From: a phage
DNA: 64,000 nucleotides
Reading direction: 5' to 3' (one strand)
Sequence record: PZ452609.1
Shown here: one piece after another, positions 6,244-63,556 of the stretch
Layout: each line of letters opens with the position of its first letter
How positions within the stretch are numbered: position 1 is the first letter of the stretch
The notes under the pieces: generated by a model
The model's input: the letters and a program-made list of their open reading frames with translations, nothing else
Databases searched by the model: none
Told to the model about the DNA's origin: nothing
Translations under genes and position numbers: made by a program

Positions 6244-6434
6244 TATTCAATATCTACAAGTTCTTGTGCAATGCTTTTAAGGTTACTTTTAAGGAAAACT
6301 TTCTCACCACCAGACAGGGAAGTGTTATCAATGAGTCTACTCATTCTCTCAAACAACTTCTGCTTACGGTTCTTGATAGTTTCCTTTGAAGCACCTTTCA
6401 TCATCGCTGCGTGGGTTCTTCCACGATGGCTCAT
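6225..6434 (-). CDS. hypothetical protein
   Basis: 69-aa ORF. Confidence 0.3.
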   Translation of the reverse strand: MSHRGRTHAAMMKGASKETIKNRKQKLFERMSRLIDNTSLSGGEKVFLKSNLKSIAQELVDIEYWRHQK

Positions 6435-9195: not shown

Positions 9196-9254
9196 TTTTA
9201 CTCCCTCTAAAATCATTAACCCCATACATTACTGCAAAAAATTATAAAAAGCAA

Positions 9255-9278
9255 GTTGACAATGTACTTGACAAGGTG
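9255..9278 (+). promoter_or_regulatory. conserved double TTGACA element (copy 1)
   Basis: gttgacaatgtacttgacaaggtg in the divergent region between the polymerase start and the plus-strand block. Confidence 0.5.
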
Positions 9279-9452
9279 TTAATCTTTGCGAAGTGGGTTT
9301 TTACTTAAAAGGTTACTTAACAGTTTAACTATACAGATACTTTAAAACTCTTAAAAGATTATTTAATAGCTTTTAAAAAGCTTTAAAGTATAACGTATAG
9401 AATACGTTAAGATAAAAGATTAAAACTTAATAGTTACTTAAAAGAGGCTTAC

Positions 9453-38462: not shown

Positions 38463-39248
38463 ATGGGTATTGTAAAAATAATTAATGGTGATATCTTTGC
38501 CGCATTTGATAAAGGTAAGTTTGACATCATCGGTCACGGTTGCAACTGTATGAATTTAATGGGTGCAGGTATCGCTGACAAGATTTCTAAACTTTACCCA
38601 AAAGCATATGAGACCGATACAGAAGTTTATCTGTATGCAGGTGGTATAGGACACAAACCCTGTGAAAATTTACTGGGTAATTTCTCTGTAGCACGTTTAA
38701 AACAAGGTCGTATAGCTAACCTTTACACTCAGCTTAAGACTGGTAAAGATGCCCGATACAGTGCTTTAGAGTCATCTTTGAAACAGCTTAACAGATACTG
38801 TGAAGTTAATCAGTTGAAGAAGGTTGGTTTACCTATGATTGGTGCAGGTATCGGTGGACTTGACCCTCAAGCCGTCACAGTTATCATTAATCAGGTGATG
38901 AAGAGTGTAGATGTTTATCTGTATGTCTACGAAGGAGAGATGTACCACAAGTTACGCTCAGGTTGGAATAACTACTGTGAACCAGAATACTTTGCAGGTG
39001 TAGTAACGTTCAAAGATGATACAGTTACCCTCTTCAGACGAAGAAAAGGTAAGATACATCAAAGTAACCCTCCGGTTGAGAAGATGTCTCTAAGTAACGC
39101 TCTAGTTACCCACCTGTCGAAGAGCAATCACAGGATAGCCGTAACATTTGGCAGTGATGCAGATACATATATTTATGCAAGAACTGATGAGGATATCGAG
39201 ACGGTCTTCTCTTCACCAGAAGTTACCTTCTTAGACGCAAAGAACTAA
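38463..39248 (+). CDS. macro-domain protein (ADP-ribose binding/processing)
   Basis: GHGCNCMNLMGAGIA and a second GAGIGG glycine-rich motif typical of macro domains. Confidence 0.7.
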   Translation: MGIVKIINGDIFAAFDKGKFDIIGHGCNCMNLMGAGIADKISKLYPKAYETDTEVYLYAGGIGHKPCENLLGNFSVARLKQGRIANLYTQLKTGKDARYSALESSLKQLNRYCEVNQLKKVGLPMIGAGIGGLDPQAVTVIINQVMKSVDVYLYVYEGEMYHKLRSGWNNYCEPEYFAGVVTFKDDTVTLFRRRKGKIHQSNPPVEKMSLSNALVTHLSKSNHRIAVTFGSDADTYIYARTDEDIETVFSSPEVTFLDAKN

Positions 39249-39317
39249 GAAACTCTGTATAATATTCACAATAGACTAAGCCTTCTTTATCTGGTAAATT
39301 TTTCAGGTAAGGAGGGC

Positions 39318-39501
39318 TTTTTCATTTCAGGATTGTGCAGGTAGAGTTCTGTAGAGAAATCTGTAGAGAGAATTTTGAACTCCAAAGAGAAAATTCATTT
39401 TCAAACTGTGCAGGTAATCTCCAAAGAGCTTTTTCATTTTCAAAACGTGCAGACCCCGCTCAGGTCGGGCAAGAAAAATCATTTTAGAATCGTGCAGGTA
39501 G
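39318..39501. repeat. four direct repeats of about 22 bp (tcatttYcaNaaYYgtgcagg), iteron-like
   Basis: Copies near 39318, 39391, 39428 and 39474, followed by a polypyrimidine tract 39524-39553. Confidence 0.6.
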
Positions 39502-39676
39502 GTTTTTATAGAGAGCCAGACCAACCCCTCTCCCCCTCTTACTCCACCTCTCCCCAAAAGTCAAGAGAAAAATTTGTAGCGGGTTGAAAAATAATTCTTG
39601 ATTTGTGTTCTGTTTTGTGGTAGTCGTGCGCGCCCGTTCATTTCCCAACCTTACAAAAAATATTTAATAAAAACCG

Positions 39677-39705
39677 TTGACACGCCAAACAAGTTTACGT
39701 ACTAT
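39677..39705 (+). promoter_or_regulatory. sigma70-like promoter heading the small-ORF array
   Basis: TTGACA, 17-bp spacer, TACTAT. Confidence 0.5.
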
Positions 39706-39754
39706 TTGCATCAGACGGGCAAGCAAGCCCACTTCCTAAACTGGAGAATCGAAA

Positions 39755-39961
39755 ATGCTTTATAGTCGTGAATTGATGGTTACAACTAACGTTAACACAA
39801 AGGTAAAACGTTTTTACATGCAAGTATGTGGCGCATGGTCTAGAATATCAGAGGCTGACTATTGCAACTATGTAGAAACAGCTATAAACTCTAATTGCTA
39901 CCTTACAAGAAATACAAGAAAGTACATAAGACAGACAGCAGTTTATTACTACGATGCCTAA
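39755..39961 (+). CDS. small hypothetical protein (array member 1)
   Basis: Preceded by conserved leader ..ctaaactggagaatcgaaa-ATG. Confidence 0.5.
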   Translation: MLYSRELMVTTNVNTKVKRFYMQVCGAWSRISEADYCNYVETAINSNCYLTRNTRKYIRQTAVYYYDA

Positions 39962-40052
39962 TAAAGTACTTTACAAGGGGCTTAAAAGCTGATATCTTAA
40001 GCCCCAGATAAAGAGCTTTACCAAATCAACCCTTAAACTAGGAGATTCAAAA
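39962..40052 (+). promoter_or_regulatory. intergenic cassette type A (conserved-stem hairpin + conserved leader/RBS)
   Basis: taaagtactttacaaggggcttaa..ttaagccccagataaagagctttacc..ctaaactaggagattcaaaa. Confidence 0.6.
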
Positions 40053-40433
40053 ATGGCATATCGTGCACCTAAATTCATCAACAAAGACAACTTTCGCAAC
40101 GCACTGGAGAAGTCACTTGATGAGAATTTTAAAGGTAACGTTATTGTTGTTCACTCGTTTAATTTTAAGTATGATATCAATGGGAATAAAATTAACCATT
40201 ACACGGCGACAATGCTAGATGGTACTCTTTCAAGTGAAAAAGCCATTTTACATGCACTTGCTGGACGTGGTAAAAACCTGATAAGATGCGATAAGAGACG
40301 TTATCAGGGTGGCGCATATGGTTACGATGATGCTGTTTATCATCTTGAAAATATGGGCTATCAAGTAGAAAAAGCTGGAGTGTCTCAAATAATCGGTAGT
40401 GATGGTTATGTAACAATCTTCAAAATTAACTGA
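40053..40433 (+). CDS. small hypothetical protein (array member 2)
   Basis: Conserved leader with GGAG RBS. Confidence 0.5.
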   Translation: MAYRAPKFINKDNFRNALEKSLDENFKGNVIVVHSFNFKYDINGNKINHYTATMLDGTLSSEKAILHALAGRGKNLIRCDKRRYQGGAYGYDDAVYHLENMGYQVEKAGVSQIIGSDGYVTIFKIN

Positions 40434-40521
40434 TAAAGTACTTTACAAGGGGCTTATAGTTCGATAAAGTAAGCCCCAGATAAAGAGCTTTACCACTAAA
40501 TCCTAAATTGGAGATTCAAAA
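40434..40521 (+). promoter_or_regulatory. intergenic cassette type A
   Basis: Same stem as other type A copies, different loop sequence. Confidence 0.6.
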
Positions 40522-40812
40522 ATGGCTACTATCAAAAACGTTGTAATTCCTGTAAAAACTCGTGATGACGCTCGCATCATGGCGAAAAAGTTAGGCGGGA
40601 AAGTGGTTGACAACGGAAAACAATCTGCTGTAAGATGGGGTGTGAAGGCTGATAAACAGTTGAAGTTAAAAAATTCACCAATAAATCTTTTTACATGTGT
40701 AAACACTATCGGAAAGACAAATGTATACACGAAAAAGGCATATATTAGACGCGTAGCCTTAACATCTCCAATTCGTACAATGAGAGGTTATGCAAAGCTG
40801 AAAATTAACTGA
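40522..40812 (+). CDS. small hypothetical protein (array member 3)
   Basis: Conserved leader with GGAG RBS. Confidence 0.5.
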   Translation: MATIKNVVIPVKTRDDARIMAKKLGGKVVDNGKQSAVRWGVKADKQLKLKNSPINLFTCVNTIGKTNVYTKKAYIRRVALTSPIRTMRGYAKLKIN

Positions 40813-40900
40813 TAAAGTACTTTACAAGGGGCTTAAAAGTTGGTATCTTAAGCCCCAGATAAAGAGCTTTACCACTCAATCCTAAACTGGAGATTCAAAA
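40813..40900 (+). promoter_or_regulatory. intergenic cassette type A
   Basis: Same stem, different loop. Confidence 0.6.
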
Positions 40901-41197
40901 ATGAAATTATCAAATAAAGTTCGTGAAAATCTAAGCAAATTACTCAACAAAATTGATTTCATTGAAACATCAAGAAATAGCCATGATGTTATGGAATGGT
41001 TACACGGCAAAATAAAAGGTCGTCGTGTAGTGATTTGCTTATGGAATAGTTGCAGGGAGTATAAAAAACCTGTATTGCAAGTTAATATCTATGATGATAC
41101 TCTTAAAAGTCCTGTCAAATCTAAAAGCGATTTACTAGATTCTTATGAGATAACTGTAAATGGCAAAGTATCACGTAAAGAGGAAGCACCATGTTAA
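40901..41197 (+). CDS. small hypothetical protein (array member 4)
   Basis: Conserved leader with GGAG RBS. Confidence 0.5.
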   Translation: MKLSNKVRENLSKLLNKIDFIETSRNSHDVMEWLHGKIKGRRVVICLWNSCREYKKPVLQVNIYDDTLKSPVKSKSDLLDSYEITVNGKVSRKEEAPC

Positions 41198-41612: not shown

Positions 41613-41885
41613 ATGTATACTACTAACAACGGTCGCACTTTAAATGTCACTCTACGTCACTATGTAGACGGTGTGATGCACTTTGAGGATTTACAGGCTG
41701 AGCAACATATCTTAGATTGGCAAGTCGCAGGACTCCAAAAAACTGCTACCGGATACGGCAAAAAGATTCCAACTAGCTGGAAAGTATACTATGAAGGACG
41801 TTTGCGCAGAATTTATCAGGATGTATGTAGCAATAGCACATCAAGTTACATCATAGTAAAAGGTAAAAAACTGCATTTAGTATAA
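41613..41885 (+). CDS. small hypothetical protein (array member 6)
   Basis: Conserved leader with GGAG RBS. Confidence 0.5.
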   Translation: MYTTNNGRTLNVTLRHYVDGVMHFEDLQAEQHILDWQVAGLQKTATGYGKKIPTSWKVYYEGRLRRIYQDVCSNSTSSYIIVKGKKLHLV

Positions 41886-41970
41886 AGTACTTTACAGGGG
41901 GCTTATTAGTCTGTACAGTAAGCCCCAGATAAAGAGCTTTACCACTCAATCCTAAATTGGAGATTCTAAA
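41886..41970 (+). promoter_or_regulatory. intergenic cassette type A
   Basis: Same stem, different loop. Confidence 0.6.
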
Positions 41971-42375
41971 ATGGCTATTAATAATCGTGAGTTGTCAATC
42001 TTAAAAGCACGTTTAACCGTTAATCGAATCAATGTTATTACATCATCAGCACCGGATGAAACATTGCACAACATTATCGGAAAGATTCAAAGCGTTATCT
42101 TAGACGTTGAAAACGTAAAAAACTCATTGGCTGACGTTGCAGCAGGTATCACGCTAGACGGTGCACAATATGAAATGGTCGACATGTTAGGCAAATCTAA
42201 GGTAATGAATAAAGAGTTAGACTTGAAAATGTTTAGATTTGCCGTGAAAGTGTGGCTATCTGTTGAGTATGATGCTAATTTTGCAATCGCTGATTTCTTT
42301 GCCACTTGGTTACAACGTAATTTGGCAAATCATGACTTTCGTGACATCTGCGACGCAATTTATGCAGAACTCTAA
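41971..42375 (+). CDS. small hypothetical protein (array member 7)
   Basis: Conserved leader with GGAG RBS. Confidence 0.5.
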   Translation: MAINNRELSILKARLTVNRINVITSSAPDETLHNIIGKIQSVILDVENVKNSLADVAAGITLDGAQYEMVDMLGKSKVMNKELDLKMFRFAVKVWLSVEYDANFAIADFFATWLQRNLANHDFRDICDAIYAEL

Positions 42376-42476: not shown

Positions 42477-42674
42477 ATGGCTATTATCAACGGTTTAACC
42501 ATTGAAACCACGCACATCAAAGACATTAAAGTTGGTGATGTAGTTCTTTCCCACGGCGTAGAAAAAACAGTCACTGCAAAGGATATCAAAGATGATTCTT
42601 TCATGGGTAGAACTCTCTTCGGTGATTCTTATTGCTTAGGTTATCTTGCAGTTTTAAAAGTTGTCAAAAATTAA
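42477..42674 (+). CDS. small hypothetical protein (array member 8)
   Basis: Conserved leader with GGAG RBS. Confidence 0.45.
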   Translation: MAIINGLTIETTHIKDIKVGDVVLSHGVEKTVTAKDIKDDSFMGRTLFGDSYCLGYLAVLKVVKN

Positions 42675-42767
42675 CTGATAAAGTACTTTACAAGGGGCTT
42701 ATAGTTCGATAAAGTAAGCCCCAGATAAAGAGCTTTACCACTAAATCCTTAAACTAGGAGATTCAAA
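42675..42767 (+). promoter_or_regulatory. intergenic cassette type A
   Basis: Same stem, different loop. Confidence 0.6.
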
Positions 42768-43310
42768 ATGAAATGCTTTCACGGTACTACTCAAGAAAAC
42801 TTTATCAACCTGATTAATAACGGTGATAAACCATCAGGTGTATGGAATTGTTCGGATATGGACGGCAATTTTTACGTGTACCCAGAAAATAAACTCTATG
42901 GTGATGATGAGGAAGAGATAGCATCGGAAGGTATCCAGCAAGCTCTAGGAAATGCCACTATCACGGCAGCTTTTCAGATGAAAACTCAAAATATTGTTAT
43001 CTTAGAACTTGACATTCCAGAGGATGAGCTAAATGATGATTATTCTTGTGATAACATGTCAAATATAGCAAGCTTTACAGAGTACTTTGATGTAAATTGG
43101 ATTAAAAAGGTCTATACAACAGAGTTCAACGCTATGTATTCACCTTTTTGTCTCCCTTCACTGGATAACCCAAATTTAAATTATCTTGATGAAACATTGG
43201 AGCTACTTGCTAAAAGTATCCAACAATCCGACAGTATTCAGGTTTTTTGTGACATCATGGATACACTGACAGAAAACATTGTAGAGAGTGATTTAAAGGT
43301 CTTTTTCTAA
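42768..43310 (+). CDS. hypothetical protein (array member 9)
   Basis: Conserved leader with GGAG RBS. Confidence 0.5.
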   Translation: MKCFHGTTQENFINLINNGDKPSGVWNCSDMDGNFYVYPENKLYGDDEEEIASEGIQQALGNATITAAFQMKTQNIVILELDIPEDELNDDYSCDNMSNIASFTEYFDVNWIKKVYTTEFNAMYSPFCLPSLDNPNLNYLDETLELLAKSIQQSDSIQVFCDIMDTLTENIVESDLKVFF

Positions 43311-43703: not shown

Positions 43704-43952
43704 ATGTATACTAAAACTCAACTAAAAAACATGGTTAGCAATGGCTTAATGGATGAAGTCTATAAAGAGTGTAGACGCTACGGGGAAATTAAGGATAAGA
43801 CTAGTTATGAGTATACCCACACAATAGACTTTAAAACCAATGAGAAGAGGACTGACCTTGTTACTGTAGTAGTGATTGAGTATAAACGAATTATTTGGAC
43901 CTTTGAGCTAGTAAAAGGTGAGTGCACAGAGATAGAATATAAAGACGCTTAA
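43704..43952 (+). CDS. small hypothetical protein (array member 11)
   Basis: Conserved leader with GGAG RBS. Confidence 0.5.
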   Translation: MYTKTQLKNMVSNGLMDEVYKECRRYGEIKDKTSYEYTHTIDFKTNEKRTDLVTVVVIEYKRIIWTFELVKGECTEIEYKDA

Positions 43953-44037
43953 AGTACTTTACATGGGGCTTATTAGTCTGTATAGTAAGCCCCAGATAAA
44001 GAGCTTTACCACTCAATCCTAAACTGGAGATTCTAAA
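43953..44037 (+). promoter_or_regulatory. intergenic cassette type A
   Basis: Same stem, different loop. Confidence 0.6.
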
Positions 44038-44379
44038 ATGGCTTATGTAACCGTAATTACCGATAAAGCTGGCTCATCTTGGTCAACTCAAGTAAGTGAT
44101 AAGATGTCACCTATGCAGTGCCTAAAATACTTTGAACAGTGGAACAAAGGCGAGGGTGTAAGCCCCTTTCAAGTGATGCAAATCATCCATACAGATAACG
44201 AAGGGAATAAAACGACCTTGAACAGTGAATACTACGCAAGCCGTTTTGAAACGAGAAGTAAAACAATGAAGCTTTTACGTGAATCCGGTTATGCACATAT
44301 TGCCGCTTTAATCTGGGATGACCTGCTAAAAAGTCAGCGTATCAGCTATGTAAAGCCTGAAAAAATCTTCATAAGTTAA
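44038..44379 (+). CDS. small hypothetical protein (array member 12)
   Basis: Conserved leader with GGAG RBS. Confidence 0.5.
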   Translation: MAYVTVITDKAGSSWSTQVSDKMSPMQCLKYFEQWNKGEGVSPFQVMQIIHTDNEGNKTTLNSEYYASRFETRSKTMKLLRESGYAHIAALIWDDLLKSQRISYVKPEKIFIS

Positions 44380-45779: not shown

Positions 45780-46478
45780 TCGACGCAGCGGGGCTAAATA
45801 GCCCCAGATACCTGAAAAGCTCCTTCTCATAGGGGCTTTTTTACGTCTATAAAGAGACTCTATACAATCCCTTTCCTTTCCTTCCTAGAATCTATCCCGT
45901 ACCTTAAAAGCAATAACTCTATAGCTTACTCTATAACCCCTTATCAAATCAACTTAAATATAAGCCCATAACCCGAAAGGGAAGGGCAACCATTTAAACG
46001 CTCTATAAAGCCCTATAACAGCCTTATCAACCTAACTTAAGCAATCATATTAACCCACTCTAAAAAGCCCTTTATAGAGCTTTCTAGAGCCTTAAAAGAA
46101 TCTTATAAGGGTGTGAGCTTTATCATCTCGTTAGCTATCTTGTGAACTACTAAAAAGGGCTTGTTAGTGTCTTAAAAGTATGTTATAGGGGCTATAAAGT
46201 TACTTTGAAGTAGCTTAAAAGTTACGTAAATGCTAGCCCCCTTAACATTTTCTTAACAATTTCTTAACAATCCCTACATAGTTATGCTTTTAAGGCACTT
46301 GTTAGCAACTTGTTAGCCCCTTGTTAAATCTCTGTTAAGACCACGTAAAAGCCTTGTAAGAACCTTTGACATAGCCTTAAAAGCTCCTGTAAAGCCCTAT
46401 AAAGAGCTATCCATACAGTTGAGGGGTAGATACTAGGAAGAGGCTTAAAAGAGCTTACAAGGAGCTATAGAGAGCTTT

Positions 46479-46599
46479 TAAAAGGTATGTTTAGAGAATC
46501 ACTAAGAGAGAAAGGGAACGATAAGAAAAGAGATAGTGACCATGTTAATAGCTTGTTAAAAAGATTAAACACTTGTTAGGAACTTGTTAATTATCTTAA
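46479..46599. repeat. direct repeat copy 1 flanking the N gap
   Basis: About 120 bp identical to 46700-46818. Confidence 0.8.
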
Positions 46600-46699
46600 N
46601 NNNNNNNNNNNNNNNNNNNNNNNNNNNNNNNNNNNNNNNNNNNNNNNNNNNNNNNNNNNNNNNNNNNNNNNNNNNNNNNNNNNNNNNNNNNNNNNNNNN
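46600..46699. other. assembly gap (100 N)
   Basis: Run of exactly 100 n. Confidence 0.95.
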
Positions 46700-46818
46700 T
46701 AAAAGGTATGTTTAGAGAATCACTAAGAGAGAAAGGGAACGATAAGAAAAGAGATAGTGACCATGTTAATAGCTTGTTAAAAAGATTAAACACTTGTTAG
46801 GAACTTGTTAATTATCTT
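46700..46818. repeat. direct repeat copy 2 flanking the N gap
   Basis: Identical to 46479-46599. Confidence 0.8.
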
Positions 46819-47652
46819 AACAAAATAACTCTTTAAAATTAACTTGTTAGCTCTTGTTAGTTATCTGTTAAGATTCTGTAAAGCCCTACCAAAGCTTGTT
46901 AGAAAACTGTTAAGTTCTTGTTAGTTCTGTTAAGAAACTGTTAAGACCTTTGAAGAGATGTTAAGAGCTTGAGAGAGTTGTTAAGATGTTGTTAAGGATA
47001 TTTTAAAATTTTGCAAAGTACTTGTAAGGGAGCTGTTAAGGGCTACCAAGCAGATATACATCTTCTACAGATATTTTTGAGTTCCTTCAAAGACCCTAAA
47101 AAATGACTTGACAGTCTTATTTTATAAAAATTTTAAAATTCTGAATAATTACTTATACAGTCTTTTAAAAATACAGGTAGAAACAGGCTTATAAGATACC
47201 TTGTTAGTACCGTGTTAGACCTTGTGAGATAAGGTCTGTAAAGATATTCCTGTTAAGTTTGTTAAAACAGTCTATATAGAGGCTTAGTAGTGCCTAGTGA
47301 ACACCTATAGAGAGTATCATAGCTGACATAGAGATTAAGGGGTGTATAGAGGCTTCTAAGAGCGTATAGAGAGATGGTTAAGGTGATTGTATAGGTTGTT
47401 AAGAAGGCTTGTTAGAAGAGTGTTTAGAGGGCTATTTAGAAGGGTTATACAGAGGGGCTATTAAGACCACTAGATAGTTACTAAGACACTATATAGTACT
47501 ATATAACTATATATAGAGAGTAAGATTAAGAAGGTTGTTAAGAAGGATAGATATTTTATTCACATATGATGGTGACCCAGAGGTTGGAACAACCGATAAA
47601 ATTTTTATAAAAATTAAAAAAAGCCCCCAATTAAGGAGGCTCTTAAGATATT

Positions 47653-57825: not shown

Positions 57826-57905
57826 CTCCGTTTAGCTCAGTCTGGTTTAGCAGCACTTGCTTTGGGAGCAAGGGGTCGAGGGTTCAAATCCTTCAACGGA
57901 GACCA
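57826..57905 (+). tRNA. tRNA-Pro (anticodon TGG)
   Basis: Hand-folded cloverleaf, anticodon loop ttTGGga, T-loop ggttcaaatcc, 3' CCA encoded. Confidence 0.7.
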
Positions 57906-57912
57906 AATTAAT

Positions 57913-57990
57913 GTTCCAGTAGACAAAATGGTAAAGTCACCACTCTTTCAAAGTGGATATTTGAGGGTTCAAATCCCTTCTGGAACGCCA
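57913..57990 (+). tRNA. tRNA-Glu (anticodon TTC)
   Basis: Anticodon loop ctTTCaa; acceptor gttccag/ctggaac. Confidence 0.7.
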
Positions 57991-58080
57991 GTTTTGACAG
58001 AAGACCAATTACAGCAAACTTAATCTACTCATCTGAAAGTTAATCGGACAAAGAAGATATTTGGTCTGGTCATTAAGAAT

Positions 58081-58157
58081 TGCGGGTATAGAGAAAGGGC
58101 GTCTCACATGTCTCATTAGCATGGTATCGGCAGGTTCGACTCCTGCACCCGCCTCCA
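58081..58157 (+). tRNA. tRNA-Met (anticodon CAT); possible 1:72 mismatch (initiator-like) or register ambiguity
   Basis: Anticodon loop ctCATta; T-arm gcagg-ttcgact-cctgc. Confidence 0.6.
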
Positions 58158-58241
58158 AATTTACAGAAGACCGTTTACAGCAATATTTATTAAATTTTTA
58201 GCGGAAAAAATTGAAATATACGGTCTGGTAATACTAAACAT

Positions 58242-58318
58242 GGTTAGGAAGCACATAAGGTATGTGCGGTCGCCTGTTAAGCGAATGGCACAGGGTTCGA
58301 ATCCCTGACTAACCGCCA
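58242..58318 (+). tRNA. tRNA-Asn (anticodon GTT)
   Basis: Anticodon loop ctGTTaa. Confidence 0.65.
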
Positions 58319-58387
58319 AATTTAGGAGAGAAGCGATTGCTCACCGATTTGTAAGGTACAAGTCCTTAGCCTGAATAGAAATTAAAT

Positions 58388-58475
58388 GTGTCGTTATCCC
58401 GTAGATGGTAGCGGTGGGGACTGTAAATCCCTTGTCATTGAGACTCGGTAGGTTCGACTCCTACACGGCACACCA
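58388..58475 (+). tRNA. tRNA-Tyr (anticodon GTA), long variable arm
   Basis: Anticodon loop ctGTAaa; about 14-nt variable arm. Confidence 0.7.
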
Positions 58476-58480
58476 ATAAA

Positions 58481-58558
58481 GGTTATGTAGTTTAATTTGG
58501 TTAAAATACTCCCCTGTCACGGGAGATGATGAGGGTTCAAATCCCTTCGTAACCGCCA
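58481..58558 (+). tRNA. tRNA-Asp (anticodon GTC)
   Basis: Anticodon loop ctGTCac. Confidence 0.65.
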
Positions 58559-58705
58559 ATTTTGAGAGGGCTATTTAGCCCCTCCCTTAAAGGGTTCTTA
58601 CGAGTATTCTTTAAAGGAGCAGAAGACCAAATACAGCAAGTTATTTAAAATTTCAAGCCAATTTAATTTTGAAAAATTTAAAACTTGGTCTGGCTCAACA
58701 AATTT

Positions 58706-58838
58706 ACAGAAGACCGTTTACAGCAAAACTTAAACAATCTATTTCTCCGGTAAAGAAAAGGCGAAGGTTCGATTCCTTCACTCGGCAGATGTCGAGTTGG
58801 TGTAATGGTAGCACTTAAGATGATAAACAACGGTCTGG
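58706..58838 (+). ncRNA. permuted tRNA-like element, candidate Y RNA-like (YrlA-type) RNA
   Basis: Order is anticodon-like stem-loop, T-arm gaagg-ttcgatt-ccttc, acceptor 3' strand actcggc, short loop, acceptor 5' strand gtcgagt, D-arm tggtgtaatggtagcac; enclosed by an 8-bp helix agaccgtt/aacggtct. Confidence 0.45.
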
Positions 58839-58840
58839 TA

Positions 58841-58982
58841 ATTATCTTTGTAGATAAGTTATTAAGCTTACCTGTGAGTATGCGACCACAAAGGGTGAAA
58901 GGGTAAATTCTAGATTTAAACCCAAAAAGGCACATCGCTACAGACCTTAAGCAAGTCTGGGTAGCTTATCTACAAAGATAAT
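58841..58982. repeat. 19-bp perfect inverted repeat enclosing about 100 nt
   Basis: attatctttgtagataag at 58841 and cttatctacaaagataat at 58963. Confidence 0.7.
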
Positions 58983-58987
58983 TTAAT

Positions 58988-59063
58988 GGAAGTGTAGCAG
59001 AATGGTGATGCGGCAGACTTTTAATCTGACAGGCGATGGGTTCGAATCCCTCCACTTCTACCA
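58988..59063 (+). tRNA. tRNA-Lys (anticodon TTT)
   Basis: Anticodon loop ctTTTaa. Confidence 0.65.
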
Positions 59064-59141
59064 AATTCACCCTTAACTAAGAAACACCTGCGCGGCTGGA
59101 AACACCCACTCAACAGTTTCTCTAACTAGGGTACTTATTCT

Positions 59142-59218
59142 GGTTCAGTCGCAGATAAGGTAATGCAAGGGTCTCATAAGCCCTATGAATGTGGGTTCGA
59201 TTCCCATCTGAACCTCCA
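59142..59218 (+). tRNA. tRNA with CAT anticodon (Met or lysidine-type Ile2)
   Basis: Anticodon loop ctCATaa. Confidence 0.65.
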
Positions 59219-59219
59219 A

Positions 59220-59295
59220 GCTGGTATAGTTAAGAAGGTTATAACACTCCCCTGATAAGGGAACATCGGTGGTTCGATTCCACCTACCAGTACCA
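59220..59295 (+). tRNA. tRNA-Ile (anticodon GAT)
   Basis: Anticodon loop ctGATaa. Confidence 0.65.
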
Positions 59296-59310
59296 ATTTC
59301 AATAAAGTTG

Positions 59311-59339
59311 TTGACATTGAGATGTGACTACTTTATAGT
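59311..59339 (+). promoter_or_regulatory. strong sigma70-like promoter inside the tRNA cluster
   Basis: TTGACA, 17-bp spacer, TATAGT. Confidence 0.55.
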
Positions 59340-59570
59340 AACCTTAGTTTTCGTTGCGTAGCGTCTATTTTGCAAATTTAAAATAAATGCAAACGACAAT
59401 GTTTTTCTGGCAGTAGCTTGATAGGCTAAACACCAGTGAGGTCTTCCAATCCCTCATCAAAGAATTTGGCGTACTAGCCCACGGTATGATTAATAAGGTG
59501 GGCAACATTCTAAAGGGTATCCCTTATGGGGCTTGGCTTAAATGCAATGAGTACCCTTTAAAATGTTAAT

Positions 59571-59647
59571 GCACCCTTAGTTCAATTGGATAGAGCAACG
59601 GTCTTCTAAATCGTTAGTTACAGGTTCGAATCCTGTAGGGTGTGCCA
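59571..59647 (+). tRNA. tRNA-Arg (anticodon TCT)
   Basis: Anticodon loop ctTCTaa. Confidence 0.7.
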
Positions 59648-59795
59648 ATTAGTTAGCAGATTACTTAGACGACCTAAGCGGGTCTTCCTGTAGGGAGGTG
59701 GTCTGTATCTCATGTTTTCCAGAACATGTAAATAATCTGAGAAGGGGCTTTACAGTGTTGAGATAATACGGTAAGCTTCGAATTATAGTTTTAAT

Positions 59796-59866
59796 AGGGG
59801 TGAGCTATGGCAGCAATAGAGTCTCCAAAATTCTTGATTAGAGTTCGAATCTCTACACCCCTGCCA
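59796..59866 (+). tRNA. tRNA-Trp (anticodon CCA) with shortened D-arm
   Basis: Anticodon loop ctCCAaa; T-arm tagag-ttcgaat-ctcta; only about 71 nt. Confidence 0.5.
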
Positions 59867-59880
59867 GAAAAGGTGCTTGT

Positions 59881-60285
59881 ATGAAACTTTGTAGAAAATG
59901 TTCTCAAGAGAAGCCTTTAAGTTGCTTTCATAAAAGAGGGAATGGCTATCAGTCTGCTTGCAAAGATTGTAAAGCTAAGTACTCAGCAAAGAGATACAAA
60001 GAAGACCCTACTTATAAAGCAAAAAGGAAAGTTAGAGCAAAATATGACAAAAAGAGAAACAGAGAGTTCCTTAGTAGATATAAAAAGTTTTGCAAATGCA
60101 GAATATGTGGTGAATCCGAGCCAGTAGCTTTAGATTTTCATCACTTAGACCCTAAAGAGAAAGATTTTGCTCCAAGCAATCTTAAGACTTACTCTAGGGG
60201 AACTATTAAGCGTGAAGTTCGTAAGTGTGTTGTGCTTTGCTCAAACTGTCATAGGAAAGTTCATGCAGGACTGTTAAGTATTTAG
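59881..60285 (+). CDS. HNH endonuclease embedded in the tRNA cluster
   Basis: Cys-rich N-terminus plus FHHLDPKEKDF..CSNCHRKVH HNH motif. Confidence 0.7.
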   Translation: MKLCRKCSQEKPLSCFHKRGNGYQSACKDCKAKYSAKRYKEDPTYKAKRKVRAKYDKKRNREFLSRYKKFCKCRICGESEPVALDFHHLDPKEKDFAPSNLKTYSRGTIKREVRKCVVLCSNCHRKVHAGLLSI

Positions 60286-60298
60286 CAGTCTTATTAGG

Positions 60299-60388
60299 GG
60301 TAGGTAGCGGCTAATGGTAGCCAAACTGTCTTGAAAACAGTTGCCACTGTAGAGATACGGTGAGGGTTCGACTCCTTTACTTACCGCC
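60299..60388 (+). tRNA. tRNA-Ser (anticodon TGA), long variable arm
   Basis: Anticodon loop ctTGAaa; variable stem-loop gccactgtagagatacggt. Confidence 0.7.
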
Positions 60389-60642
60389 TAATAAGATTTA
60401 AAGCCAAGCTTCATTCGGATGTTGCTTTGGTATACCGCGTGTATTGTTGTACACACTGATAAAACACCTAGTAGGTGTCACGGAGAAGAGATAATATCAA
60501 GCTCTCCAAAGGTTCTAGTCACCGGATTAAACAAGACTATGCAAAGGCCTTTTTAGGTCTTTTAGAGGGCTTCTAAGGTCATTACAGCTTGTTGTGGAAC
60601 CTTGTTGCTTAGGTTCTTAGAAGTTCTCTAAAAAGGTTTAAT

Positions 60643-60721
60643 GGGAGATTGACGGCAACTTGGTAGACCTATCTCGCTTAGAACGAGATGCTTGAGGGTT
60701 CGAATCCCTTGTCTCCTACCA
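60643..60721 (+). tRNA. tRNA with TAG anticodon (Leu-type) but short variable arm
   Basis: Anticodon loop ctTAGaa; T-arm gaggg-ttcgaat-ccctt; irregular D-arm. Confidence 0.5.
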
Positions 60722-60728
60722 AATTAAT

Positions 60729-60804
60729 GCAGGTGTAGCAAAATGGTTATGCGGCTGACTCTTAATCAGTAAGACGATGGGTTCAATTCCCTCCACCTGT
60801 ACCA
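60729..60804 (+). tRNA. tRNA-Lys (anticodon CTT)
   Basis: Anticodon loop ctCTTaa. Confidence 0.65.
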
Positions 60805-60810
60805 AACAAT

Positions 60811-60886
60811 GGGGTCATAGTTTATATGGTTAAAATTCGAGTTTTGCAAACTTGGGAACTGAGTTCAATTCTCAGTGACTCCACCA
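60811..60886 (+). tRNA. tRNA-Ala (anticodon TGC)
   Basis: Anticodon loop ttTGCaa; G3:U70 wobble pair in acceptor stem. Confidence 0.75.
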
Positions 60887-60892
60887 ATTAGT

Positions 60893-60967
60893 GCATCCAT
60901 AGTTTAAACGGGAAAATTACAGTCTTCCAAACTGAGGTTGAGGGTTCGATTCCCTCTGGATGCTCCA
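60893..60967 (+). tRNA. tRNA-Gly (anticodon TCC)
   Basis: Anticodon loop ctTCCaa; discriminator U. Confidence 0.65.
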
Positions 60968-60974
60968 AATTAAT

Positions 60975-61050
60975 GCTCCTATCGTATAATTGGTTATTAC
61001 GGTTGCCTTGTAAGCAACTTATCAGGGTTCGAGTCCTTGTGGGAGCACCA
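60975..61050 (+). tRNA. tRNA-Thr (anticodon TGT)
   Basis: Anticodon loop ctTGTaa with perfect 5-bp anticodon stem. Confidence 0.7.
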
Positions 61051-61146
61051 ATTCAGAGGTCAAGTGAAAGACCGCTTTGAGTCAACTGAAGACCGTAACA
61101 AATTCCACGAAGTTGAGTTAGCGGCACAACTTCAGACCTCTTTCAT

Positions 61147-61221
61147 ACTCGCTTAGTTTATATGGTAAAACATCACCCTTACAAGATGAAGAAAAAGGTT
61201 CAAGTCCTTTAGTGAGTACCA
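61147..61221 (+). tRNA. tRNA-Val (anticodon TAC)
   Basis: Anticodon loop ctTACaa. Confidence 0.6.
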
Positions 61222-61222
61222 T

Positions 61223-61300
61223 GTTCCAGTATCCCAATTGGCAGAGGATGCAAGCTCAAACCTTGTATTAGTGACGGTTCGAATCCGTCTTGGAACACCA
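61223..61300 (+). tRNA. tRNA with CAA anticodon (Leu-type) but short variable arm
   Basis: Anticodon loop ctCAAac; T-arm gacgg-ttcgaat-ccgtc. Confidence 0.5.
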
Positions 61301-61305
61301 ATTTT

Positions 61306-61381
61306 GCAGGATTAGTTCAAATGGAAAGAGCAACAGTCTACGAAGCTGTTAATAGGGGTTCGAATCCCTTATCCTGCGCCA
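61306..61381 (+). tRNA. tRNA-Arg (anticodon ACG)
   Basis: Anticodon loop ctACGaa. Confidence 0.7.
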
Positions 61382-61398
61382 GATAAAAAGGTGATACT

Positions 61399-61641
61399 AT
61401 GCAAACATTAACAGTAGTTGAACATGAAAACTGTGAGAGTATTGAGTTTGTCAGGGTCATTGGTGTTGAACACCACATTTTCTTAAAAGTGGGATACTTA
61501 TGTGACCCCGCTAGAGTAGAAAGCTTTATACGTGATTGTTTTGGTGGTAGACATCTGAAGAGTGTTATTTTTGAGACAGTTTTACCAGAAGGTTTAGAAA
61601 CGAATAATAACATTTACCTCCTTACGAGGATTAGACAATGA
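61399..61641 (+). CDS. hypothetical protein (inside tRNA cluster)
   Basis: 80-aa ORF with AAGGTGA RBS. Confidence 0.45.
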   Translation: MQTLTVVEHENCESIEFVRVIGVEHHIFLKVGYLCDPARVESFIRDCFGGRHLKSVIFETVLPEGLETNNNIYLLTRIRQ

Positions 61642-62195
61642 GATACTTAAAGTATGCTTCATGGATTTTCTTAGCTTTGTTAGAGCCATTTGCAGCAATC
61701 TTAGCAGTTATCTTAGCACCTTTTGTAGTTCCATTCTACAGTGAGAAGAAAGGACACTTACCTTTCGGGTTCAGATGGATGGAGACTTATGACAACCCAA
61801 TTGATGGTGATGCAGGTCATATCAAACGATGGGCTAAGATTAGAAAGATTGGTAAGCTTGGTGTCTACATGCAGAGAGTTGGATGGCTCTGGAGAAACAA
61901 AGCTTATAACTTCTCTTACCATGTATTAGGAAGAGATGTAAAAGATGTTACTAAGTGGAAAGGTAATATCAACGTAAGTTCTAACCCTGAAGATAATCAG
62001 ACTGGTTATCTCCTAATGTGGAACAGTAATGCTTGGGGATTATTCGCTTTTGTGCCGTCAATCAAAATCTTTGGTAAACAATTTTACTGGAGAATTTATG
62101 TTGGGTGGAAACTTAAAAGTGTTGTCCCAGAAGAAAGAGCATTTTCAAGGGAAAGAGTTATGTTGGCATTCTTTATTCATCCACTAAGAAAGTAA
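61638..62195 (+). CDS. membrane protein (inside tRNA cluster)
   Basis: 185 aa with N-terminal TM segment. Confidence 0.45.
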   Translation: MRYLKYASWIFLALLEPFAAILAVILAPFVVPFYSEKKGHLPFGFRWMETYDNPIDGDAGHIKRWAKIRKIGKLGVYMQRVGWLWRNKAYNFSYHVLGRDVKDVTKWKGNINVSSNPEDNQTGYLLMWNSNAWGLFAFVPSIKIFGKQFYWRIYVGWKLKSVVPEERAFSRERVMLAFFIHPLRK

Positions 62196-62203
62196 AGATT
62201 TAA

Positions 62204-62279
62204 AGGGGATTAGTTTACAAGGTTAAAACCTCGGTCTTTGAAATCGAAGAAGTTGGTTCAATTCCAACATCCCCCGCCA
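62204..62279 (+). tRNA. tRNA-Gln (anticodon TTG)
   Basis: Anticodon loop ctTTGaa. Confidence 0.6.
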
Positions 62280-62281
62280 AT

Positions 62282-62360
62282 GCTCCATTACTCCAATTGG
62301 CAGAGAGGCCAGACTTAAAATCTGTGTTATGTATCGGTTCGAATCCGATATGGAGTACCA
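62282..62360 (+). tRNA. tRNA with TAA anticodon (Leu-type) but short variable arm
   Basis: Anticodon loop ctTAAaa; T-arm atcgg-ttcgaat-ccgat. Confidence 0.5.
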
Positions 62361-62365
62361 AATTT

Positions 62366-62441
62366 AGCGGTATAGCATAACTGGCAATGCAGCAGTCTCT
62401 GAAGCTGTCCTATTAAGGTTCAAATCCTTATGCCGCTGCCA
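62366..62441 (+). tRNA. tRNA-Gln (anticodon CTG)
   Basis: Anticodon loop ctCTGaa. Confidence 0.55.
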
Positions 62442-62472
62442 CTTCTAAGGATTCTTACGAGAGTCCTTAAAT

Positions 62473-62548
62473 GTGGCCTTATCATAAATGGTAATGACCC
62501 ATGCTGTGAACATGGTCTATACGGGTTCAAATCCCGTAGGTCACCCCA
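62473..62548 (+). tRNA. tRNA-His (anticodon GTG)
   Basis: Anticodon loop ctGTGaa with perfect anticodon stem. Confidence 0.7.
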
Positions 62549-62553
62549 ATTTA

Positions 62554-62630
62554 TAGTCCAAGTAGCTTATATGGTTAAAGCGCGTGTCTGAAAAACATGA
62601 GAAGAGGGTTCAAATCCCACTGGACTACCA
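62554..62630 (+). tRNA. tRNA-Phe (anticodon GAA), irregular acceptor register
   Basis: Anticodon loop ctGAAaa; D-stem gctt/aagc. Confidence 0.55.
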
Positions 62631-62646
62631 ATTTCAAAGGTGCTTA

Positions 62647-63381
62647 ATGAAAGAGATGACAGAACAAGGTAAGGAGATTTTCAATCTCTTAAAAACCGGT
62701 AAAGGGTTTTCTAACCCCCTTATTACTGGTGCAGCAGTTCTCGGTGGAACCGTAGCTGCCTCTACATCACTTGTAAGCTCTATTAGTTCTGTATCAGACC
62801 CTACAGTAAAGGATAAGATTGTTGCTGCTGGACTTACAACAGTTCTGCTTAACAGCTTTACCACGAGTCTGACAAGCACTACATCAACTACCAAAACACT
62901 AACAGATTACGGTCAAAAGTCCATTGATGAGTTTTCATCACGTATGCAGGTAGCAAAAGGTTACTCTAATGTTATGGGTGCAGCAGGTGAACAAGTTGGC
63001 TGTACACCATTTAGTGGTATTATGGGTGTTGCTACAGAGTATGGTCAAAAAGCTATTGATACGATTAACAGTGCACTAGATAGTGTTAATGGTGTGTTAA
63101 GTGACTTACAAGATGCTATTGACAAAGGTCTTGATACTATTTCTGATTTAGCTGAGCAAGCTGTTAGTAAGATTAATGAAGGTATTTCAAAAATTACAGC
63201 TTATGCAGATGAAGTTGTGCAGATGATTGAAGAAGAAGCTGCTCTTATTGCAGAGTACCTTAAAACGAATATCAATGGGTTCTTAGCAGGTATCTTACCA
63301 GACTGGTTTGATGATGCTTGTAAAACTGGTGTAATTGACACTATTGCAACACCAGAAATGAAGAACGCATTACAGAAATAA
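62647..63381 (+). CDS. hypothetical protein, Ser/Thr/Ala-rich
   Basis: Start moved to MKEMTEQ (AAAGGTG RBS) because the track start overlaps tRNA-Phe. Confidence 0.5.
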   Translation: MKEMTEQGKEIFNLLKTGKGFSNPLITGAAVLGGTVAASTSLVSSISSVSDPTVKDKIVAAGLTTVLLNSFTTSLTSTTSTTKTLTDYGQKSIDEFSSRMQVAKGYSNVMGAAGEQVGCTPFSGIMGVATEYGQKAIDTINSALDSVNGVLSDLQDAIDKGLDTISDLAEQAVSKINEGISKITAYADEVVQMIEEEAALIAEYLKTNINGFLAGILPDWFDDACKTGVIDTIATPEMKNALQK

Positions 63382-63383
63382 AT

Positions 63384-63476
63384 GGAAGATTAACCCTAAA
63401 AGGTAAGGGAGCAGTTTGCTAAACTGCCAGTAGCTGAGAAATCGGTGTACCAGTTCAAGTCTGGTATCTTCCTCCA
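63384..63476 (+). tRNA. tRNA-Ser (anticodon GCT), long variable arm
   Basis: Anticodon loop ttGCTaa; long variable stem-loop. Confidence 0.7.
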
Positions 63477-63480
63477 ATTT

Positions 63481-63556
63481 GAATCCGTGACAGAAACGGC
63501 TATGTGCCTGTCTGCAAAACAGGTTTATAAGGGTTCGAGTCCCTTCGGATTCTCCA
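63481..63556 (+). tRNA. tRNA-Cys (anticodon GCA)
   Basis: Anticodon loop ctGCAaa; discriminator U. Confidence 0.7.

Follow-up and report, generated by a model that had tools for sequence, protein, structure and literature searches.

By sequence comparison, the 506-bp non-coding gap between a macro-domain gene and a block of small open reading frames (ORFs) holds a deeply conserved, previously undescribed set of DNA sites that lies ahead of the first early promoter in Felix-O1-like phages. The stretch of DNA analyzed here, referred to as the window, comprises 64,000 nucleotides from a phage (record PZ452609.1), and its source is a Felixounavirus genome. Over the 2.1 kb around the sites, identity is 99.6% with Escherichia coli O157 typing phage 1 and ~91% with about 180 further Felix-O1-like phages. 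Felix O1 and related phages are classic agents of typing and biocontrol. Our searches retrieved no literature on the Felix-O1 origin, its early regulator, its transcriptome or the array motif, and according to the Felix O1 genome paper of 2010 the temporal regulation of transcription is not known. The array is the most conserved non-coding element that we found at the head of the early-gene block, and none of the annotations or papers found describes it.

The macro-domain gene is the end of a long rightward operon containing nrd genes, NAMPT, rIIA/B, a kinase and spanins, and it lies on the same strand as the array. Downstream of the gap, the small-ORF block extends from 39755 to ~46200 (~6 kb, ~17 small ORFs) and terminates at the terminal repeat; each small ORF has its own promoter-terminator cassette. 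The features of the gap and its surroundings are as follows, in window coordinates.

38463–39248, plus strand: macro-domain ('phosphatase') gene (Pfam Macro, E=1e-7; annotated as macro domain or phosphatase in relatives)
39249–39754: non-coding gap with the repeats, 506 bp
39278–39319, plus strand: predicted intrinsic terminator, hairpin and T-run (terminator scan)
39322–39343, plus strand: repeat 1, TCATTTCAGGATTGTGCAGGTA
39349–39369, plus strand: two CTGTAGAG words in the double-length gap (73 bp) between repeats 1 and 2
39380–39416, plus strand: unit 2, the lineage-specific 5' element CTCCAAAGAG followed by repeat 2 (39395–39416, TCATTTTCAAACTGTGCAGGTA)
39419–39455, plus strand: unit 3, CTCCAAAGAG followed by repeat 3 (39434–39455, TCATTTTCAAAACGTGCAGACC)
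39479–39500, plus strand: repeat 4, TCATTTTAGAATCGTGCAGGTA
39524–39554, plus strand: C-rich pyrimidine tract, a variable module
39555–39623, plus strand: AT-rich block, nearly invariant (AAAAGTCAAGAGAAAAATTTGTAGCGGGTTGAAAAATAATTCTTGATT...TCTGTTTTGTGGTAG; column conservation in 27 distinct sequences, and alignment)
39626–39643, plus strand: GC island as a composite GTGCG-N7-TCATTT, with both half-site words in swapped order
39677–39705, plus strand: predicted leading early promoter TTGACA-17-TACTAT (promoter scan 10/12; -35 and -10 align across genera)
39755–39961, plus strand: first small ORF of the block, 68 aa, PHROG 5293, unknown function
46236–47047, no strand assigned: equivalent of the 581-bp direct terminal repeat of Pr103Blw, placed by mapping the PhageTerm-defined repeat that is annotated at both ends of that record

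The four direct repeats of ~22 bp described in the original prediction were borne out. When both strands of the 64 kb were searched with TCATTT-N4-A-N2-GTGCAG, exactly four matches were obtained, all of them on the plus strand and within 180 bp, compared with a mean of 0.13 and a maximum of 1 in shuffled sequences. The start-to-start spacings are 73, 39 and 45 bp, and repeat 3 ends in GAC, not GGT. Since the unit spacing elsewhere is 35–47 bp, the double-length gap between repeats 1 and 2 is probably the site of a lost ancestral unit. No further copy of the core TCATTT-N7-GTGCA was found, either in the 64-kb window or in those 24 kb of the nearest relative's genome that lie beyond it. The array is therefore not a promoter class, and a general phage promoter motif was ruled out, there being no second copy genome-wide.

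We next consider the conservation of the array. It was found in eight lineages, namely the four Ounavirinae genera Felixounavirus, Suspvirus, Mooglevirus and Kolesnikvirus and the lineages L044, L110, L111 and L113, which were retrieved via a pattern scan of IMG/VR and macro-protein homologues (33–45% identity). Each lineage carries 4–6 copies. When ten phages of the genera Felixounavirus, Suspvirus and Mooglevirus are aligned, all four repeats are kept and the spacers vary; over 27 distinct sequences, variation is almost absent from the repeats and the AT-rich block, and the promoter and the 5'UTR are less conserved. Across 36 units from the eight lineages, positions T1, A3, T4, G14, T15, G16 and A18 are invariant, C2 is present in 35/36 and C17 in 34/36. 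The N7 spacer has the same length in all 36 units, and the flanks and spacers between units differ. The cross-lineage core is TCAT[T/A]T-N7-GTGCA, an asymmetric, two-part word that is not palindromic. A ~10-bp word particular to each lineage precedes the core on its 5' side (CTCCAAAGAG in the window); this word could result from concerted evolution of the units or could serve a second, lineage-specific factor.

The position of the array is conserved as well. The Erwinia phage Ea_Tu10 (Kolesnikvirus) is barely alignable with the window, yet it carries four copies of TCATTTT-N6-GTGCATAG with a spacing of 37–39 bp, and its elements follow in the order macro gene, terminator, four repeats, C-rich tract and UP+TTGACT promoter. 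In all eight lineages a terminator precedes the array, and the first UP+TTGAC promoter of the small-ORF block follows it at a distance of 150–300 bp. L110, L111 and L113 have 1–3 genes intervening between macro gene and array, with the linkage to terminator and early promoter kept; the constant partner of the array is therefore the head of the early block and not the macro gene, and a strict functional link to the macro-domain gene was ruled out by these intervening genes. A two-repeat pattern scan of 185,579 species genomes for a host chromosomal counterpart returned unrelated repeats only, none of them in Enterobacterales.

Several records place ORFs over the array. Those annotated as 'hypothetical protein' at 39327–39642 and equivalent positions, on either strand, include bas63_0096/0097, FO1a gp14, Mordin gp014, Sf13 gp58 and ECTP8_01444. 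Hidden ORFs over the array were rejected, as indels among genera (2, 4 and 2 bp) disrupt all frames, and the array-spanning ORFs are spurious for this reason.

The elements around the repeats were compared among the same phages. The terminator, which the original prediction had not included, is strong, and its T-run leads directly into repeat 1. The same terminator is annotated in phages Barry and AYO145A, and its stem is retained in Mooglevirus and Suspvirus despite sequence changes. A tract consisting only of C and T had been proposed downstream of the repeats. The 30-mer from 39525 is indeed the most pyrimidine-rich of the window (28/30), but it contains two A interruptions, and the longest pure pyrimidine run, 16 nt, is not longer than expected by chance (shuffle mean 16.7). 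In C600M2, Alf5, AYO145A, finno and Bas63 the pyrimidine tract is replaced by a G-rich segment. This alternative module (GGTAGGTGGGTGCAGGTGGGG...; Bas63 64312–64370) occupies the same position on the same strand, so that the strand asymmetry is reversed. The first 49 bp of the adjoining AT-rich block (39555–39603), also absent from the original prediction, are almost invariant among relatives.

The GC-rich island and the consensus-like promoter that had been predicted next are both present, the former at 39624–39637 and the latter as TTGACA-17-TACTAT with a score of 10/12, preceded by an A/T-rich UP-like stretch at 39650–39676. The GC island is not credible as a terminator (-4.4 kcal/mol, z +1.3). 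The composite word GTGCG-N7-TCATTT, spotted post hoc, has 2 matches in the window compared with 0.21 expected per strand. The centre of the composite site lies ~78 bp upstream of the predicted start, just before the UP-like stretch, and a related element is present in the divergent L113. The composite at 39626–39643 is suggestive of a promoter-proximal site, a candidate that is imperfect and was recognized post hoc. Further downstream, promoter-plus-terminator cassettes of ~100 bp recur between the small ORFs (39958–40055, 40423–40539, 40802–40914, 41882–41973, 42668–42772 and 43950–44040); they appear to match the 57-bp direct repeats of the Felix O1 genome paper.

The layout had been likened to either a replication origin or a multi-site operator. 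An operator fits best, since the array travels with the first early promoter in every lineage, and the origin reading has been weakened. We tentatively read the array as a set of landing sites for one DNA-binding protein through which the leading early promoter is controlled, an assignment that we regard as possible rather than probable. The single locus, the one orientation, the invariant core bases, the fixed internal spacing and the deep conservation argue for the behavior of protein-binding sites, and the array as a whole is under strong selection. We infer that it acts on the level of DNA rather than RNA and through protein binding, most likely of one regulatory protein, and that its target may be the promoter. 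In the proposed mechanism, the array would sit in a short non-transcribed island, with an operon-ending terminator upstream and a near-consensus sigma-70 promoter downstream. A single sequence-specific protein, contacting DNA through two reading heads or two subunits spaced by about one helical turn, would load cooperatively on the array and, via the composite site at 39626–43 beside the UP element, would set the activity of the leading early promoter. Because the promoter is already near consensus, shut-off or timing would be likelier than activation.

To place the array among known control regions, it was compared with several of them. It resembles the phi29 p4/p6 early-promoter shut-off sites and looping operators in which distal sites are strong and proximal ones weak in having several sites upstream of a strong early promoter and a possible weaker proximal site. 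Such control regions also share with the array that they are dispensable when the regulated genes are dispensable. They differ from it in that the array sites are asymmetric two-part words, not inverted repeats, and in that the core has stayed frozen over a divergence deeper than operators usually show. A monomer with two helix-turn-helix (HTH) heads reads two short words separated by about one helical turn. The MarA/SoxS/Rob marbox is an asymmetric 20-bp site with GCAC and an A-rich element, and the reverse strand of the array likewise reads as two words about one helical turn apart, TGCAC-N7-AAATGA. In a hand alignment with the marbox consensus, the A-rich element of the array is one base closer to GCAC and several positions fail, and membership is not claimed. 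Judged by hand comparison with consensus sequences, which we take as a lead only, none of IHF, Fis, CRP, Lrp, sigma-54 and the marbox fits all copies.

A candidate binder is the Cro/C1-type HTH protein encoded at 2472–2801 on the minus strand (Pfam HTH_3, E=6e-10). Proteins of this type usually bind palindromes, which counts against the candidate, as the array sites are not palindromic. The Bas63 orthologue of the HTH_3 protein, gp35, is important for fitness (PhageMaP). For a simple operator, the strong sites lie far from the promoter, 180–350 bp away from the -35 hexamer. The motif is missing from the other small-ORF promoters, so that the array could control the first promoter only. Operators usually co-evolve fast with their regulators, whereas the array core is frozen across barely alignable phages. 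This conservation of the core across very distant phages suggests that the partner is a very conserved phage core protein or a host protein.

The effect of insertions in the array can be read from PhageMaP data for phage Bas63 (JohannRWettstein), in which short barcode insertions were scored in the hosts S17 and MG1655 (bioRxiv 10.1101/2024.10.10.617714). In this phage the array occupies 64137–64311, and the spurious ORF 'gene 96' (64142–64297) begins within repeat 1 and ends where repeat 4 starts. Its insertion scores are +0.24 to +0.65 in S17 and +0.65 to +0.93 in MG1655; those of DNA polymerase and primase-helicase insertions are -0.8 to -1.5 and -2.1 to -2.6, respectively (bioRxiv 10.1101/2024.10.10.617714). 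Most of the downstream small ORFs likewise score as non-essential, and terminase insertions are strongly deleterious (bioRxiv 10.1101/2024.10.10.617714). The array scores come from small insertions at at least two sites within 'gene 96' and do not extend to 'gene 97', an ORF drawn over repeat 4, the variable tract and the AT-rich block. As insertions at more than one site are neutral, the integrity of the array is dispensable for laboratory growth. This is the expectation for a regulator of dispensable early genes, and it would equally fit a redundant origin or a function needed solely outside the laboratory.

A redundant origin is the first alternative to such a regulator, and we consider it rather unlikely. 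The origin would be of the iteron type or transcription-activated, with an initiator on the 4–6 repeats, melting in the adjacent tract or AT-rich block and assistance from the strong promoter. What the array shares with iteron origins (ori-lambda with its four O-protein sites and AT region, plasmid Rep iterons and T4 oriE) is a unique genomic locus, direct repeats of 18–22 bp in one orientation, an AT stretch and a nearby promoter. Its position in a transcription-free island from terminator to promoter and the strand-asymmetric C-rich tract and invariant AT-rich block that adjoin the repeats also favor an origin. Likewise, the phage has a T7-like replisome, whose Toprim+DnaB_C primase-helicase is of the T7 gp4 kind, and origins of the T7 type, none of them indispensable individually, combine a promoter with an AT-rich segment. 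Unlike in iteron origins, however, the units are not contiguous but 35–47 bp apart and there is no recognized initiator. The flanks encode the macro-domain protein and small ORFs of unknown function, and no Rep, O or DnaA-like initiator was found among the 16 distinct proteins scanned or beside the array. DnaA boxes are absent from the gap, with 0 matches to TTWTNCACA on either strand of 39249–39754.

Base composition and duplex stability also speak against an origin at this site. Neither the GC skew nor the AT skew shows an inflection at 39.5 kb. Cumulative GC skew had been named as a check in the original prediction: the skew is positive from 10 to 44 kb and its cumulative minimum lies elsewhere, at ~10 kb, which formally contradicts an origin at the array, but the test is a weak one because skew tracks gene orientation here. 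The duplex around the repeats is of ordinary stability (at best the top 1.35% for 30-bp windows and 11.6% for 100-bp windows), and the lowest values in the window are found at ~9.3 kb and 47.1–47.5 kb. A better generic candidate is offered by the least stable DNA together with the divergent DNA-polymerase and primase promoters at 9.23–9.45 kb. Finally, the insertions in the Bas63 array were tolerated in both hosts and those in the polymerase and primase-helicase genes were deleterious. Taken together, the evidence leans against an essential replication origin.

The AT-rich divergent intergenic region at 9226–9452 separates the minus-strand DNA polymerase gene from the plus-strand primase-helicase operon and contains the least stable 100-bp window. 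Being close to the cumulative GC-skew minimum (~10 kb), it is a generic origin candidate in its own right.

Further alternatives depend on where the genome ends. The repeat of Pr103Blw maps to 46236–47047, and about nine other records begin at this position. At ~46600–46699 the window contains a run of 100 N with one and the same ~120-bp sequence on each side, a scaffold join in the terminal-repeat region. The surrounding stretch (46150–47250) is non-coding, has 32% GC and contains 28 TGTTA words, mostly plus-strand TGTTAA/TGTTAG, with a dominant spacing of 11 bp and its multiples; this spacing we take to be the geometry of ArcA direct-repeat boxes. In conflict with this placement, Bal31 digestion and run-off sequencing of UAB_Phi87 gave a 542-bp terminal duplication corresponding to 61863–62404, in the tRNA cluster. 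The 27 tRNA genes of the window are clustered on the plus strand at 57826–63556. As the terminal repeats map to 46236–47047 or 61863–62404, the array itself was ruled out as a genome terminus. The break of the phage TH10 record at 39606, with a 74-bp overlap, was dismissed as an assembly artefact.

On the Pr103Blw placement (581-bp repeat, record starts and 100-N join), the array bounds the terminal ~8% of the genome on its inner side, 6.7–7.5 kb from the right end, and the small-ORF block fills the interval. L113 repeats this layout, with the array, ~6 kb of small ORFs and a TGTTAA-rich contig end. An improbable explanation is a boundary or entry checkpoint like that of T5, at which a bound protein would hold DNA entry, the replication fork or read-through until early proteins are made. 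In T5, too, conserved non-coding repeats make up the stop signal, which lies at 7.9% of the genome (bioRxiv 10.1101/866236). This injection-stop region (Repeat Region 3 in the left terminal repeat) resembles the array in having conserved non-coding repeats that are better kept than the adjacent ORFs and in lying ~8% from the end (bioRxiv 10.1101/866236). It differs in its length of 1.2 kb and its palindromes, large inverted repeats and paired DnaA boxes; the array consists of ~300 bp of direct repeats without DnaA boxes, and its inverted repeats are short and imperfect. Against a checkpoint also stand the neutral array insertions in Bas63, the UAB_Phi87 duplication, which contradicts the end placement, and the literature, in which no reports of two-step DNA transfer in Felix-O1-like myoviruses were found. 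By analogy with T5, a specific form of such control in a contractile-tailed phage, with the terminal ~8% delivered or expressed first and a deeply conserved factor holding the rest, would be more improbable still. If true, it would amount to a T5-like two-step programme in an unrelated phage subfamily, using different sequence signals.

Recognition of the array in packaging or at the terminus, for example as a landing pad for the terminase small subunit, is very improbable. Terminase recognition sites are often direct-repeat arrays, and in L110, L111 and L044 a small TGTTA/TTAACA cluster lies within ~100 bp of the array, the same motif that fills the terminal repeat. However, in the window and in L113 the array is 6–7 kb from the terminal repeat, 39249–39754 contains no TGTTA word, and the array insertions were neutral in contrast to the strongly deleterious terminase insertions.

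Least probable of all, to the point of being barely credible, is that the region functions at the RNA level, whether as small RNA, protein sponge or read-through element, or that tandem duplication has left a neutral relic here: the repeats do share flanks within each genome, as duplication and concerted evolution predict, but no promoter is predicted on either strand from the terminator to 39677, folding is no better than in shuffled sequences on both strands (six of seven segments at z +0.3 to +1.4, one at -1.9), no Rfam family covers the region (only tRNAs reach the thresholds in the window), and neutrality is ruled out by the invariant core and fixed N7 across lineages with unalignable flanks.

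Knowing the protein that binds the array would open a way into the early switch of the subfamily, or into its replication or entry. It would also provide a compact orthogonal DNA-protein pair for phage engineering, along with corrected annotations.

Two observations concern other records. The IMG/VR contig L029 (10 kb), apparently from an unrelated virus, has two 50-bp direct repeats at 6254–6321 upstream of a promoter-like site, each of which contains a perfect TCATTTTAACATAGTGCAG; these repeats may be a coincidence or a distant analogue. The record GU169904.1 (Staphylococcus phage SA1, 147 kb) holds this Felixounavirus region at ~90–92% identity, which, judged from the sequence match, suggests a chimeric or contaminated record.
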